Source of the DNA: Escherichia virus TH47 | Sequence record: MT446416.1 | Length of the DNA stretch: 64,000 nucleotides | Reading direction: 5' to 3' (one strand) | Part shown: in pieces, positions 23,826 to 59,064 of the stretch | How positions within the stretch are numbered: position 1 is the first letter of the stretch | Layout: each line of letters starts with the position of its first letter | Translations under genes and position numbers: made by a program | The notes under the pieces: generated by a model | Told to the model about the DNA's origin: nothing | Database searches by the model: none | Seen by the model: only the letters and a program-made list of their open reading frames with translations

Positions 23826-23853
23826 ATTATATCACCTTTTTCCAAGCTGTCCC
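23826..23853 (-). promoter_or_regulatory. promoter GGGACA-N16-TGaTATAAT
   Basis: Minus-strand GGGACAgcttggaaaaaggtgaTATAAT; same architecture as sites at 44835 and 57615. Confidence 0.55.
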
Positions 23854-44834: not shown

Positions 44835-44862
44835 ATTATATCAGAAGATGTTAACTTGTCCC
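44835..44862 (-). promoter_or_regulatory. promoter GGGACA-N16-TGaTATAAT
   Basis: Minus-strand GGGACAagttaacatcttctgaTATAAT just after the CCA-enzyme stop; a second TGgTATAAT lies at 44770-44778. Confidence 0.55.
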
Positions 44863-56524: not shown

Positions 56525-56953
56525 TTAGTTAATAATAAAGGTAACTTCAGGATTCATTTCTGAAACTGCATTTCTTTTACTTCTATTCCATAGTACTCTA
56601 TTGTTATATAATGAAGAATCACAAATTATAAGTAAGCAATTCCTTAATCTACTTACAGTACTTTGATTACTTAAATCAGTTTCTGTAACAAAAAATACAT
56701 TATCAGGAACTTCTACAGGAATTGATTTATCAAAGAAGAAAACTACAATAGGTCTGTTTGTATGAACTAAATTAATAAAGTCTAAAATACTGTTATAAAA
56801 TTCAGTTCCTTTGTTTAAACTTAATGGATCTTTGATCCTCTTCAAATATGTCTGAACCAATTTATGATCGTTTTTGATTTGATACTCAAAATATTCTTTG
56901 AATAACATTTGTGTTAATTCAGATGTATTGGATATTTTCGTTGTGTTACTCAT
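56525..56953 (-). CDS. hypothetical protein
   Basis: 142-aa ORF directly downstream of the non-coding unit. Confidence 0.45.
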   Translation of the reverse strand: MSNTTKISNTSELTQMLFKEYFEYQIKNDHKLVQTYLKRIKDPLSLNKGTEFYNSILDFINLVHTNRPIVVFFFDKSIPVEVPDNVFFVTETDLSNQSTVSRLRNCLLIICDSSLYNNRVLWNRSKRNAVSEMNPEVTFIIN

Positions 56954-57091
56954 TCACTTCGTTCTCTCGTAACTCAAGAAGTCACTACGTTTACTTCGTA
57001 AACTAGTTCCTTCTGAAAATGATAATGTACTTTAAAAGCTTGACGGGATTTGTTGAGGACTATTTCATCCCCCCGCAGGGGAATGAAGGTA

Positions 57092-57116
57092 ATAAAAAAG
57101 AGACAATTAAGTCTCT
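57092..57116 (-). terminator. rho-independent terminator ending the candidate ncRNA
   Basis: Perfect 6-bp stem agagac/gtctct, 6-nt loop, T6-7 on the minus strand only. Confidence 0.55.
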
Positions 57117-57608
57117 CTTGACGATGATGGCATCGGATATTATCGAATTGCGAATTTCTCAAATTTTGGACGGATCTTTCTTGTACCAAAATTTAGAGAG
57201 CGAAAGCGGGTTGCTCGGTTTCTCTCTATCGCAGTCATATGCAACGGTCGCTGGTCTTTTCATCAACAGCACTCAGTACTAAACTCTATTCGATCAAAGT
57301 AGTACCTGTTCTCAAATTTTGGACGCAACTTTCTTGTAAAATCGCGTCCACAATCCTTGAACTCCCTTAGCAAATTCGTAAGGTGCGAACCTTATACATC
57401 TATCTAGGAACTCTCTGTGTGCTTATTGGAGTTCTTTATACAGCCGTGTCGCCGTGATTCGTGGTCTTATCTCGTGTTTGTTTGATTGCCAGTACTCTAA
57501 CAGGTTTCTTTTGCTGTTCGCTACAACGGTAAAGCTCATCTATCCTTTACATTTTCAAGAGAAGTAGGTTCTCATTATCCATTTTTCAATGTCCGTTGTC
57601 ATTTTACA
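57092..57608 (-). ncRNA. candidate structured non-coding RNA (~515 nt), promoter-to-terminator unit without ORF
   Basis: Own promoter at 57615-57642 and own terminator at 57092-57116; all frames interrupted by stops; 17-nt direct repeat at 57156-57172 and 57309-57325; several GC-rich hairpins. Confidence 0.4.
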
Positions 57609-57614
57609 ATATAC

Positions 57615-57642
57615 ATTATATCACTAGGATGTATTATGTCCC
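57615..57642 (-). promoter_or_regulatory. promoter GGGACA-N16-TGaTATAAT driving the non-coding unit
   Basis: Minus-strand GGGACAtaatacatcctagtgaTATAAT just after the stop of the 57644-58057 gene. Confidence 0.55.
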
Positions 57643-57643
57643 G

Positions 57644-58057
57644 TTACATGTATACCTTTTTCAAATCCTTGGAACAACGGTCAAAAATTGTTTTGATGAA
57701 TTCGACATCCTCTTTGATATTGGAGTCTATAGCATCATTCTCGTTTCTTGTCGTGTTCCTGTATTTGTGTTCAGGGTGATTGTATACCACCTTGACTACA
57801 TTATTTAGGTCTACAAAAAATGACGATTTTTGCGTATAGGAAGCCTGAAGCTTAATGAGTTTACCATCGTTTTGTAGATTAGTCTTGTGAATTAGTTCTT
57901 CAATACCATCTAAATGGCTATAGCTATCCTGTTCTTTGACGAATGTAACAGTTACCAGTACTGACTTCTCATCTCCAAAGTCAGAGATATTTTTAACAGC
58001 ACTGATGATTTCTAAGTTTGAAAAATCTAATTCTTTTAGCATTACAAGTATTTCCAT
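57644..58057 (-). CDS. hypothetical protein
   Basis: 137-aa ORF. Confidence 0.45.
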   Translation of the reverse strand: MEILVMLKELDFSNLEIISAVKNISDFGDEKSVLVTVTFVKEQDSYSHLDGIEELIHKTNLQNDGKLIKLQASYTQKSSFFVDLNNVVKVVYNHPEHKYRNTTRNENDAIDSNIKEDVEFIKTIFDRCSKDLKKVYM

Positions 58058-58452: not shown

Positions 58453-59064
58453 TTAATTGTGATTATTCAATTTCTTTTGTTCTTTTTTTAGAGCTTTCAT
58501 ATGTCGTCCAAAATCACGGACATGCCATATATGGTCGGTTTCCCATAGTTCTGTACGTAAACGGCGTTCTTCCAATTCTTCTGGAGTAGGAATTTTAGAT
58601 TTCTTCTTATCTTTATTGAAAAAATCATTCATATGTTCTTCCAGTAGATTTCTACCCTTAACTTTTTCCAGGAATTCATCTACTGATTCAGTTTTATTAG
58701 AACGAAGACTGTTACAACGTGAACACATTGTGTTGTAATTTGACTCTAAATCAGGTCCACCCTTAGATGCTAGTTGGTTATTATCTACTGTCATCAGTAC
58801 TTCATATAGACCACAAACTGCATAGACATTTAAGTGAGGTTTACCATATACCGGATCTGTGCTATGTGAACGCTCAATGCGAACTTCAGTAGCTTCAATG
58901 CCACACGCAACGCATTTGCAATTCTTAACGAATGTCAGTACTTTTTGTGGGAAGTATCGGAAAGTAACACCGTTATATGTATAGCGTTTCATCTGTGTAC
59001 TTCTTTGATTTAACTCATTAAGAAGTGATAGTTTGGCAACATAGTAGACCTGATATTTTGACAT
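58453..59064 (-). CDS. Cys-rich zinc-finger protein, possibly HNH-like
   Basis: CKCVAC...H...CSRCNSLRSNK; canonical HNH histidines not all present. Confidence 0.35.
   Translation of the reverse strand: MSKYQVYYVAKLSLLNELNQRSTQMKRYTYNGVTFRYFPQKVLTFVKNCKCVACGIEATEVRIERSHSTDPVYGKPHLNVYAVCGLYEVLMTVDNNQLASKGGPDLESNYNTMCSRCNSLRSNKTESVDEFLEKVKGRNLLEEHMNDFFNKDKKKSKIPTPEELEERRLRTELWETDHIWHVRDFGRHMKALKKEQKKLNNHN

Follow-up and report, generated by a model that had tools for sequence, protein, structure and literature searches.

Introduction

Large RNAs that combine dozens of covarying base pairs with many invariant unpaired bases are rare, and historically they have been ribozymes or the cores of RNA-protein machines. 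Among the closest described systems are GOLLD and ROOL of phages and prophages, Rfam families of RNAs of at least 500 nucleotides (nt) whose function is unassigned, as is that of the RNA described below; according to recent cryo-electron microscopy work, both reportedly form RNA-only multimers. A further precedent is found in PA5oct, a Pseudomonas jumbo phage distantly related to RaK2 and 121Q, with four non-coding RNAs (ncRNA001-004) of 240-620 nt that are free of open reading frames (ORFs). Two of them are highly transcribed throughout infection as evidenced by RNA sequencing (PMC7318152), and phages of this group therefore make abundant long non-coding RNAs. Here we analyze a gap between genes at positions 56954-57643 of a 64,000-nt stretch of Escherichia virus TH47 (record MT446416.1; this whole stretch is referred to as the window), for which an inspection of the letters alone, the original prediction, had proposed a structured phage non-coding RNA (ncRNA) on the minus strand with its own promoter and terminator. 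Like GOLLD and ROOL the locus is a stand-alone, phage-encoded RNA gene with covarying helices, pseudoknots and conserved unpaired nucleotides, and we consider it virtually certain that it is the founding member of an uncatalogued family of large structured ncRNAs in the enterobacterial RaK2-like jumbo phages.

Conservation and non-coding nature

The window comes from a jumbo phage of the genus Asteriusvirus (121Q/PBECO4-like); it shares 99.9% identity with Escherichia phages EC.P1 and Ecwhy_1 and 97.5% with 121Q. By blastn the region is present in 71 phage records that include Asteriusvirus, Mimasvirus (GAP32, CBB), Eneladusvirus (fHe-Yen9-04, BF and the pEa_SNUABM phages), Alcyoneusvirus (RaK2, K64-1), the Munch/7t3 group and Erwinia phages. 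The whole unit shows 56-90% nucleotide identity across all enterobacterial RaK2-like genera, and in profile searches with nhmmer essentially the full 500 nt were aligned in every genus. Our collection of about 70 distinct copies was assembled by blastn and by exact-pattern scans of IMG/VR and metagenomes with confirmation by nhmmer, where all 47 metagenomic pattern matches proved to be true members of the family.

Every RaK2-like jumbo phage that we examined contains the RNA in several copies, with 3-5 paralogous positions per genome. 121Q has no fewer than three, with copy a, orthologous to the copy in the window, at 247.4 kb, copy b at 326.6 kb and copy c at 192.8 kb. One uncultivated genome of 366 kb holds four. 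Clustering by flanking genes places the copies in a handful of syntenic positions with different flanks that recur across genera, and the paralogues are therefore old. The further matches within the 64-kb window are promoter-like or terminator-like fragments, and the other paralogues lie outside it. Gene conversion among the paralogues is likely in these recombination-prone phages. One metagenomic contig (L206, 141-289 and 1021-1536) carries a full copy and, about 730 nt downstream on the same strand, a partial second copy comprising the 5' 140 nt; this arrangement could be a product of rearrangement or recombination.

This conservation is one of nucleotides and not of protein. Column variability by codon phase is 0.243/0.220/0.218 and thus shows no 3-nt periodicity; between the window and phage A4 the substitutions are distributed over the three phases as 43/36/31 (p=0.37), and insertions and deletions (indels) of 1, 3, 4, 5 and 8 nt break the reading frame. 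The claim that the transcribed strand holds no ORF of more than 25 codons does have to be corrected, as the gap contains a 38-codon ATG frame (57423-57539), GTG/TTG frames of 34-37 codons and one TTG frame of 71 codons on the minus strand. The longest ORF, however, differs in position and length from copy to copy, and none is kept in position, length or frame. A protein-coding gene or a decayed pseudogene is ruled out by the absent periodicity, the frame-breaking indels and the unconserved ORFs; these were two of the outcomes that the original prediction had named as speaking against it, and neither was found in the homologues. Public records either leave the region without annotation or place small 'hypothetical protein' calls on it that do not agree with one another. 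The ORFs that overlap the RNA gene or lie antisense to it include an 87-amino acid (aa) ORF at 57019-57282 on the plus strand of the window, 121Q gp516 and several GenBank entries 'hypothetical protein (x4)'; they are not conserved in homologues and very likely are annotation artefacts.

Other features of the locus agree well with the earlier description. The gap of 690 bp separates two coding sequences on the minus strand and is unusual for its surroundings, where adjacent genes overlap or are spaced by 2-54 nt, and the RNA region has a GC content of 0.405-0.435 as compared to 0.24-0.36 in the flanks. The proposed GGGACA-N16 promoter was the top site of our promoter scan, with 10 of 12 matches and the TG extension, and its sequence is of the sigma-70 extended -10 kind used by host RNA polymerase. 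A GGGACA-type promoter, or TGGTATAAT, is found at an unchanged position upstream of nearly all copies of the family, in phages and islands alike. From its location, transcription would start at about 57607-57610. The class GGGACA-N16-TGATATAAT occurs at three sites in the 64-kb window against 0.06 expected, and the two other exact matches, both on the minus strand (23826-23853 and 44835-44862), probably mark the heads of other early transcription units.

Secondary structure

From 21 copies RNAalifold derived 67 pairs, of which 23 show compensatory changes. In an independent search for stacked covariation, run on 29 copies, these helices were found again along with additional long-range ones. 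The curated structure comprises 77 pairs in 16 helices, with two pseudoknots, and was scored on a MAFFT alignment of 29 sequences. For these pairs 96.5% of the alignment cells were paired, as opposed to 36-46% when the 3' partner was slid by 1-3 columns. Changes on both sides were seen in 49 of the 77 pairs and 351 cells, while the slid controls gave 11-19 pairs and 20-42 cells, and the covariation score was 0.444 versus 0.03-0.07 in the controls. Not one of 500 shuffles reached the observed covariation; note that the shuffle control is inflated by relatedness, a problem from which the slid control is free. Folding of the single sequence yielded an energy z-score of -3.4.

Conservation and covariation together exclude chance, and with compensatory pairs well above the controls the RNA qualifies as a structured ncRNA in the generic sense. 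The fold is compact and has several domains; it comprises at least 16 helices and includes a three-way junction and two pseudoknots supported by covariation (Table 1). A covarying fold with many invariant unpaired nucleotides is typical of RNAs that act through their tertiary structure, and not of mRNAs, antisense RNAs or simple leaders.

Table 1. Positions in the window of the RNA unit, its structural elements and the adjacent genes. Elements of the RNA are listed 5' to 3'; fractions are base pairs with compensatory changes.
Feature	Position	Strand	Remarks
DUF7325 protein	57644-58057	minus	coding sequence upstream of the gap, ends at 57644
Sigma-70-type promoter	57615..57642	minus	-35 GGGACA 57642-57637, 16-nt spacer, extended -10 TGATATAAT 57623-57615
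RNA core	57094..57608	minus	about 515 nt from predicted start to end of U-run; aligned full length in all genera
H1, small variable 5' hairpin	57579..57590	minus	CAUU-GAAA-AAUG, read from the sequence; hairpin of different sequence there in other copies; not in covariation scoring
P2a/P2b hairpin, then P3 hairpin	57518..57567	minus	conserved loop GAAAAYGUA, then GAUGAG-[P3 hairpin]-CGAA; helices 1 and 2: 7/8 and 2/3
P4 enclosing P5 and variable insert	57440..57517	minus	P4 ACAGC/GCUGU, 3/5; P5 CYGU/ACGG, 1/4, weakly tested
PKa pseudoknot	57449-57447 with 57398-57396 (UGU)	minus	variants AUG:CAU, ACA:UGU, AUA:UAU
P6 hairpin	57396..57434	minus	GAACUC/GAGUUC, 6/6; loop with conserved UAAGCA, then 3' strand of PKa
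P7 hairpin	57362..57394	minus	UAAGG/CCUUA, then invariant single-stranded GCUAAGGGAG (57371-57362); variants UAAGG/CCUUA, UGAG/CUCA, GAGG/CCUU
P8, long imperfect hairpin	57308..57362	minus	3' strand is direct-repeat copy 57309-57338; lineage-specific insertion, short equivalent in GAP32-type copies
P9a/P9b hairpin	57276..57305	minus	entire 7-nt loop AUCGAAU (57294-57288) in PKb
PKb pseudoknot	57294-57288 with 57148-57142	minus	7/7; 99.5% of cells paired; found independently by RNAalifold
P10 hairpin	57240..57270	minus	4/4; then invariant GACCGUUGC(A) (57249-57240), GACCGUUGC invariant in 29/29 copies
Three-way junction P11/P12/P13	57142..57233	minus	3/5, 2/5 and 4/4; then 3' strand of PKb, 57148-57142
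P14 hairpin	57120..57134	minus	GAUG...CGUC; one-sided changes only; ends in first CGUCAAG motif
Terminator-like hairpin	57094..57116	minus	AGAGAC/GUCUCU + U6; 4/5; U-run kept wherever hairpin present
P15 hairpin	57064..57087	minus	UUCAUUCCCC-UGCG-GGGGGAUGAA; core CCC/GGG and GGGGGAU invariant; essentially no covariation
3' tail	57041..57058	minus	CCUCAACAAAUCCCGUCA; end of family homology; carries second CGUCAAG motif
142-aa protein	56525-56953	minus	coding sequence downstream of the gap, starts at 56953

Helices P7, P8 and P9a are evident in individual sequences, but were misaligned by MAFFT and for this reason are outside the count of 77 pairs. A helix proposed by RNAalifold, GUUGC/GCGAU, was replaced by the covarying P11 (UGCGA/UCGCA). 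P11 belongs to the three-way junction, the part of the RNA best conserved down to RaK2 with 85-88% identity, in which P12 (GAGAG/CUUUC) closes a nearly invariant loop of 15 nt, AAACMGRGCAACCCG, and P13 forms a long hairpin. The invariant segment after P7 is UAAGGGAG, and within this region UAAGGGA is unchanged in 29 of 29 copies. The long hairpins are distributed by lineage, as GAP32-type copies have only P13 and Munch-type copies only P8, while the lineage of the window has both. The 17-nt direct repeat that had been noticed earlier is real and actually extends to 30 nt with 93% identity (57156-57185 and 57309-57338), but it is not an independent signal, for its two copies are the 3' strands of P13 and P8, which are related to each other. 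The two hairpins that had been singled out are likewise present and correspond to P15 and to the P12/P13 junction.

The covariance-model search that had been recommended left the RNA without an Rfam match. Scanning the copy in the window against all 4227 models of Rfam 15 with cmscan at E<=10 returned nothing of substance over the RNA, the window region giving five chance-level matches of 14-20 bits against thresholds of 42-50; the models included GOLLD, ROOL, HEARO, OLE, raiA, RNase P, 6S, transfer-messenger RNA (tmRNA), group I and II introns and the self-cleaving ribozymes. Six divergent copies and an island copy (see below) gave no match to Rfam at E<=0.1, and ARAGORN found no tRNA or tmRNA gene anywhere in the 64-kb window. 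The arrangement GAUGAG-hairpin-CGAA is reminiscent of a hammerhead ribozyme, whose invariant core reads CUGAUGA ... GAAA ... UH with three helices around it. This reading was rejected: the family has AGAUGAG or GGAUGAG and thus A or G in place of the essential U4, the three bases 'GAA' that follow the hairpin are variable (GAA, GAU, GCA, GUA, GAG), and no Rfam hammerhead model matched. A full-text search of the literature on structured RNAs of jumbo phages and on Asteriusvirus transcriptomes retrieved no description of this RNA. In sum, and apart from two corrections, to the nature of the direct repeat and to the 3' extent of the unit, the proposal of a structured phage ncRNA that has a promoter and a terminator to itself was borne out wherever it could be tested computationally, with compensatory changes far above controls, and its remark that nothing in the sequence says what the RNA does still stands.

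Among the neighboring genes, a 203-aa protein at 58453-59064 (minus strand) shows weak HNH motifs and in 121Q, as gp513, bears the annotation HNH endonuclease; a homologue is also found near RNA copies at the 'd' position in other phages.

The 3' hairpin and tail

The unit had been thought to end at a clean terminator, and in this point the picture is more complex. The hairpin and its U-run at 57116-57094 are real, with a covarying stem of 6 bp that includes three G-C pairs, a 6-nt loop (UUAAUU) and U6 following directly, as in an intrinsic terminator; a simple terminator scan did not list it. The conserved unit, however, continues through 57087-57041, and several paralogues, including copy c of 121Q, lack the terminator hairpin while retaining P15 and the tail. 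The hairpin is dispensable for the family, and it may be a leaky terminator. With a U-run at 57094 and a tail ending at 57041 there are two candidate 3' ends, and we infer that in the functional RNA transcription does not stop at hairpin and U-run but continues to near 57041. The length would be about 515 nt if counted to the U-run and, with P15 and the tail included, probably about 570 nt.

Nowhere is the family more invariant than in P15 and the tail, which are almost unchanged over 50 nt. The segment is not coding, because close relatives differ by 1-nt indels, and the same indels rule out a mini-ORF after GGGGGGAUG of P15, which in the window copy reads AUG AAA UAG. As the segment occurs once in the window and only alongside the RNA, a general promoter or regulatory box was ruled out as well. 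Its end is sharp, and in the E. coli island (see below) homology to phage DNA stops exactly after CGTCAG. The motif CGUCAR is found twice, at the end of P14 (57120-57126) and at the end of the tail (57039-57045), and both change together across the family: the pairings are AA/AA in 30 copies and AG/AG in 22, RaK2-type copies have CUUCAAG/CUUCAAG, and about 4-5 are mixed. A pyrimidine tract 5' of P15 changes together with the purine tract after GACCGUUGC, in the combinations AUGA:UCAU, AAGAA:UUCUU, AAGGAU:AUCCUU, AGACA:UGUCU and AAGAAC:GUUCUU. Complementarity of the tracts within copies exceeded that of permuted pairings in 5000 of 5000 trials, in which relatedness was not controlled for, and is suggestive of a pairing between the two.

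This coupling of a core segment to a tract just past the U-run, and the order of promoter, structured RNA, terminator-like hairpin and downstream genes on the same strand in the window copy, would also suit a cis-regulatory leader, that is, a sensor or polymerase-modifying RNA in the style of a riboswitch, a T-box or the put RNA of HK022 that controls read-through of hairpin and U-run. We regard this as very unlikely. Copy b of 121Q sits between the genes for endonuclease VII and the baseplate hub, and the genes after it are all on the opposite strand; from one paralogous position to the next, moreover, the downstream genes are unrelated. The RNA is therefore not the leader of a particular gene. 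In addition, several paralogues are entirely without the terminator hairpin, and in the islands the RNA converges on a repressor gene.

The RNA is large and pseudoknotted, has a conserved hairpin near its end and a sharp boundary on the right, and is found in several genomic contexts, in Asteriusvirus with HNH endonuclease genes nearby. This calls to mind RNAs of the omega-RNA or bridge-RNA type, which serve a nuclease or recombinase of a mobile element as guide or scaffold, or a non-autonomous remnant of such an element. Yet no IscB, TnpB or IS110-type gene is adjacent in any context, HEARO and the other Rfam models do not match, a hypervariable, guide-like segment is missing, and the paralogues are old and syntenic rather than recently mobile, so that this reading appears extremely improbable.

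Copies in bacterial chromosomal islands

The unit is not confined to phages. A blastn search for distant matches in 5426 complete E. coli genomes located it in two chromosomes, LR-29-1 and EEC_W5, within an insertion of about 10 kb between ffs, the gene for the signal recognition particle RNA, and ybaA (LR-29-1, NZ_AP027515.1, about 3473.2-3483.6 kb). The integrase of this island, of the tyrosine type, is interrupted by IS3; besides it there are the RNA unit, hypothetical proteins, a DuOB-DUF488-mSLOG/DUF4326 operon, a resolvase and a DUF2188 protein. The RNA unit is complete with promoter, terminator hairpin, P15 and tail, and it is the only phage-like DNA of the island, with a best match of 80.6% identity to copy b of Serratia phage BF. 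In LR-29-1 it is followed by about 0.7 kb of non-coding DNA without a match in Rfam, in which three close ATCGATCG(TT) repeats look like an operator or iteron cluster.

At least three more bacterial copies were confirmed by nhmmer among the GTDB pattern matches listed, the count being a lower bound, and the metagenome scan added further island copies. A family of islands emerged with a common core of a large serine or tyrosine recombinase, the RNA, a convergent CI-like S24 repressor, a Ner-like protein of 90 aa, a membrane protein of about 287 aa, an LprI-like protein and a resolvase. The structurally intact RNA thus has the integrase and a CI/Ner-type switch as its neighbors. The family is represented by Silvania hatchlandensis (L108, 1-10803) and by the loci L177, L180, L182, L194, L195, L202, L203 and L214. 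The Silvania hatchlandensis island carries DarT and an ADP-ribosylglycohydrolase as well as a UvrD-like helicase as cargo. An ADP-ribosylglycohydrolase gene is also located directly or closely downstream of one RNA paralogue in Eneladusvirus-type phages (Serratia phage BF), in Erwinia phage Kaldavass-type phages and in related uncultivated phages, and the presence of ADP-ribosylation genes in both settings may be a coincidence. No replication or packaging genes were recognized in the islands, a tblastn search with the conserved island membrane protein found no phage homologue, and there was no copy of the unit among the plasmids of PLSDB.

Of the 77 pairs, 61-71 are retained in the island copies, and compensatory changes among the islands themselves affect 22 pairs; the fold is therefore under selection in the islands too. 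In a neighbor-joining tree, which serves as a rough guide, the island RNAs fall in two separate places, each beside phage copies of the 'b' position. This implies that islands obtained the unit from phages at least twice, by acquisition or replacement. With no replication or packaging genes recognized in them, the islands with the RNA may be satellite or defense islands tied to jumbo phages.

The main rival to the function favored below sees in the unit a cis-acting replication or hitch-hiking module, in which a promoter-driven RNA and the G-rich hairpin and tail form a phage origin by priming or R-loop formation in the manner of T4 or of ColE1 RNA II, a system that includes a primosome assembly hairpin. 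Upon infection by a jumbo phage, islands with the unit would undergo replication and then be packaged in the form of concatemers. There are 3-5 dispersed positions per genome, the conserved unit extends beyond the terminator-like hairpin to its sharp end at CGTCAR, and a G6 run follows the RNA. The unit was taken from phages at least twice and is the only phage-like part of the E. coli island, and such a role would explain why islands with an integrase and a repressor switch, in which replication and packaging genes were not detected, keep it whole. T4 offers parallels in its multiple RNA-primed origins and origin-plasmid concatemers: at least five origins depend on promoter-driven RNA primers, with oriE using an early promoter, and plasmids with a T4 origin or T4 homology replicate as concatemers in infected cells (PMC3016281). 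The T4 origins, however, are without a shared sequence or RNA structure (PMC3016281), and an R-loop primer would not need some 80 covarying pairs, pseudoknots and dozens of invariant unpaired bases. In most copies hairpin and U-run separate the body of the RNA from the 3' hairpin and tail; the downstream DNA is no more AT-rich than the genome and shows no distinct unwinding element, the locus has no GC-skew switch, and the unit is absent from the PLSDB plasmids. On balance we judge this explanation to be unlikely.

The cargo of the islands bears on another possibility, an anti-defense or decoy RNA that would be abundant early in infection and mimic a cellular RNA or bind a host immune or RNA-modifying enzyme, with several copies for dosage; islands would benefit from it just as other mobile elements benefit from their anti-defense genes. 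The strong sigma-70-type promoter is of a kind usually tied to early expression, the family is multi-copy and has been captured by mobile elements, and genes related to ADP-ribosylation occur both at or near one RNA copy in Eneladusvirus-type and related uncultivated phages (ADP-ribosylglycohydrolase) and in the island cargo (DarT with ADP-ribosylglycohydrolase; the DuOB-DUF488-mSLOG/DUF4326 operon). On the other hand, the RNA has no likeness to any cellular RNA family even at E<=10, its target is hypothetical, the association with ADP-ribosylation concerns a single paralogous position and may be fortuitous, and the islands are themselves host-resident carriers of defense genes. A role of this type therefore seems quite improbable.

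Function

The reading that we favor has two layers, a structured ncRNA gene family and, built on it, an early protein-binding RNA, and as a whole we assign it a probability of roughly 0.6. Its functional layer taken by itself is tentative and less likely than not. The RNA would be transcribed early in infection by the host polymerase, and once folded it would bind, and so scaffold or titrate, a protein encoded elsewhere in the phage or in the host. The contact surfaces would be the invariant loops GAAAAYGUA, UAAGGGAG, GACCGUUGC and GCAACCCG together with the invariant 3' hairpin and tail, and the paralogues would supply dosage or partner variants. Islands with an intact copy would use the same interaction, be it that they sense, exploit or interfere with the phage, or for a benefit of their own.

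Several points weigh against this. The transcript, with its ends, timing and abundance, is deduced from sequence, and the protein partner is hypothetical, with no gene standing consistently beside the RNA. The covariation controls remove phylogenetic relatedness only in part, and for P5, P14 and P15, which hardly vary, covariation gives almost no support. A purely trans-acting RNA offers islands no obvious reason to keep a copy of their own, and it leaves unexplained why the best-conserved part lies past the terminator-like hairpin, which could point to a cis-acting function at the level of DNA.

An old, syntenic, multi-copy family and at least two captures by islands with preservation of the fold suggest that phage and islands both depend on the same RNA-level function. 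One may go further and see in the RNA a new class of large ribozyme-like or scaffold RNA that is a core, multi-copy part of RaK2-like phages and at the same time a handle by which a previously unrecognized family of small chromosomal islands exploits or counters them. We consider this doubtful; if true, it would be the first satellite or interference system centered on an RNA to be described in jumbo phages. The sequenced jumbo phages with the RNA number more than 70, from E. coli, Klebsiella, Salmonella, Erwinia and their relatives, and several of them are under consideration for therapy; in their records the RNA is unannotated or mis-annotated as tiny hypothetical proteins. With it Rfam would gain a family and RNA structure determination a target, and it offers an experimental entry into the biology of jumbo phages and a possible new interaction of phages and islands.

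Comparison with known systems

A comparison with a distantly related phage is offered by PA5oct, for whose ncRNA001-004 neither a structure nor a family has been described. ncRNA001 and ncRNA002, the two that were compared to the family with nhmmer --max, showed no detectable similarity.

ColE1 RNA II, at about 550 nt, is comparable in size, is likewise transcribed from a sigma-70 promoter of its own, and depends on its fold for a function exerted beside the place where it is made. T4 has several origins per genome, and origin-bearing DNA is replicated in infected cells, but the T4 origins share no motif or RNA structure (PMC3016281). Compared to any primer RNA the present RNA is far more constrained, and it is usually followed by a hairpin and U-run.

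The pRNA of phi29 is another phage-encoded structured RNA that has its own early promoter, acts in a protein machine and makes use of loop-loop pairing. At 174 nt, however, it is single-copy and unrelated in sequence and structure, and no Rfam model matches the RNA described here. The two partners of the PKb loop pairing change together within each copy, which fits an intramolecular pseudoknot, unlike the situation in pRNA. The omega RNAs of IscB and TnpB (HEARO) and the bridge RNAs of IS110 are also large, structured and tied to mobile DNA, with conserved terminal hairpins and sometimes in the vicinity of HNH nucleases, but the present RNA is without an adjacent effector gene, a guide-like variable segment or a match to these models.

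From GOLLD and ROOL the RNA differs in several respects. It matches neither model even at E<=10, its hosts are jumbo myoviruses of Enterobacterales, and its family is distinguished from both by 3-5 syntenic paralogues, by an invariant hairpin and tail past the terminator-like hairpin, and by copies that have been captured by chromosomal islands.

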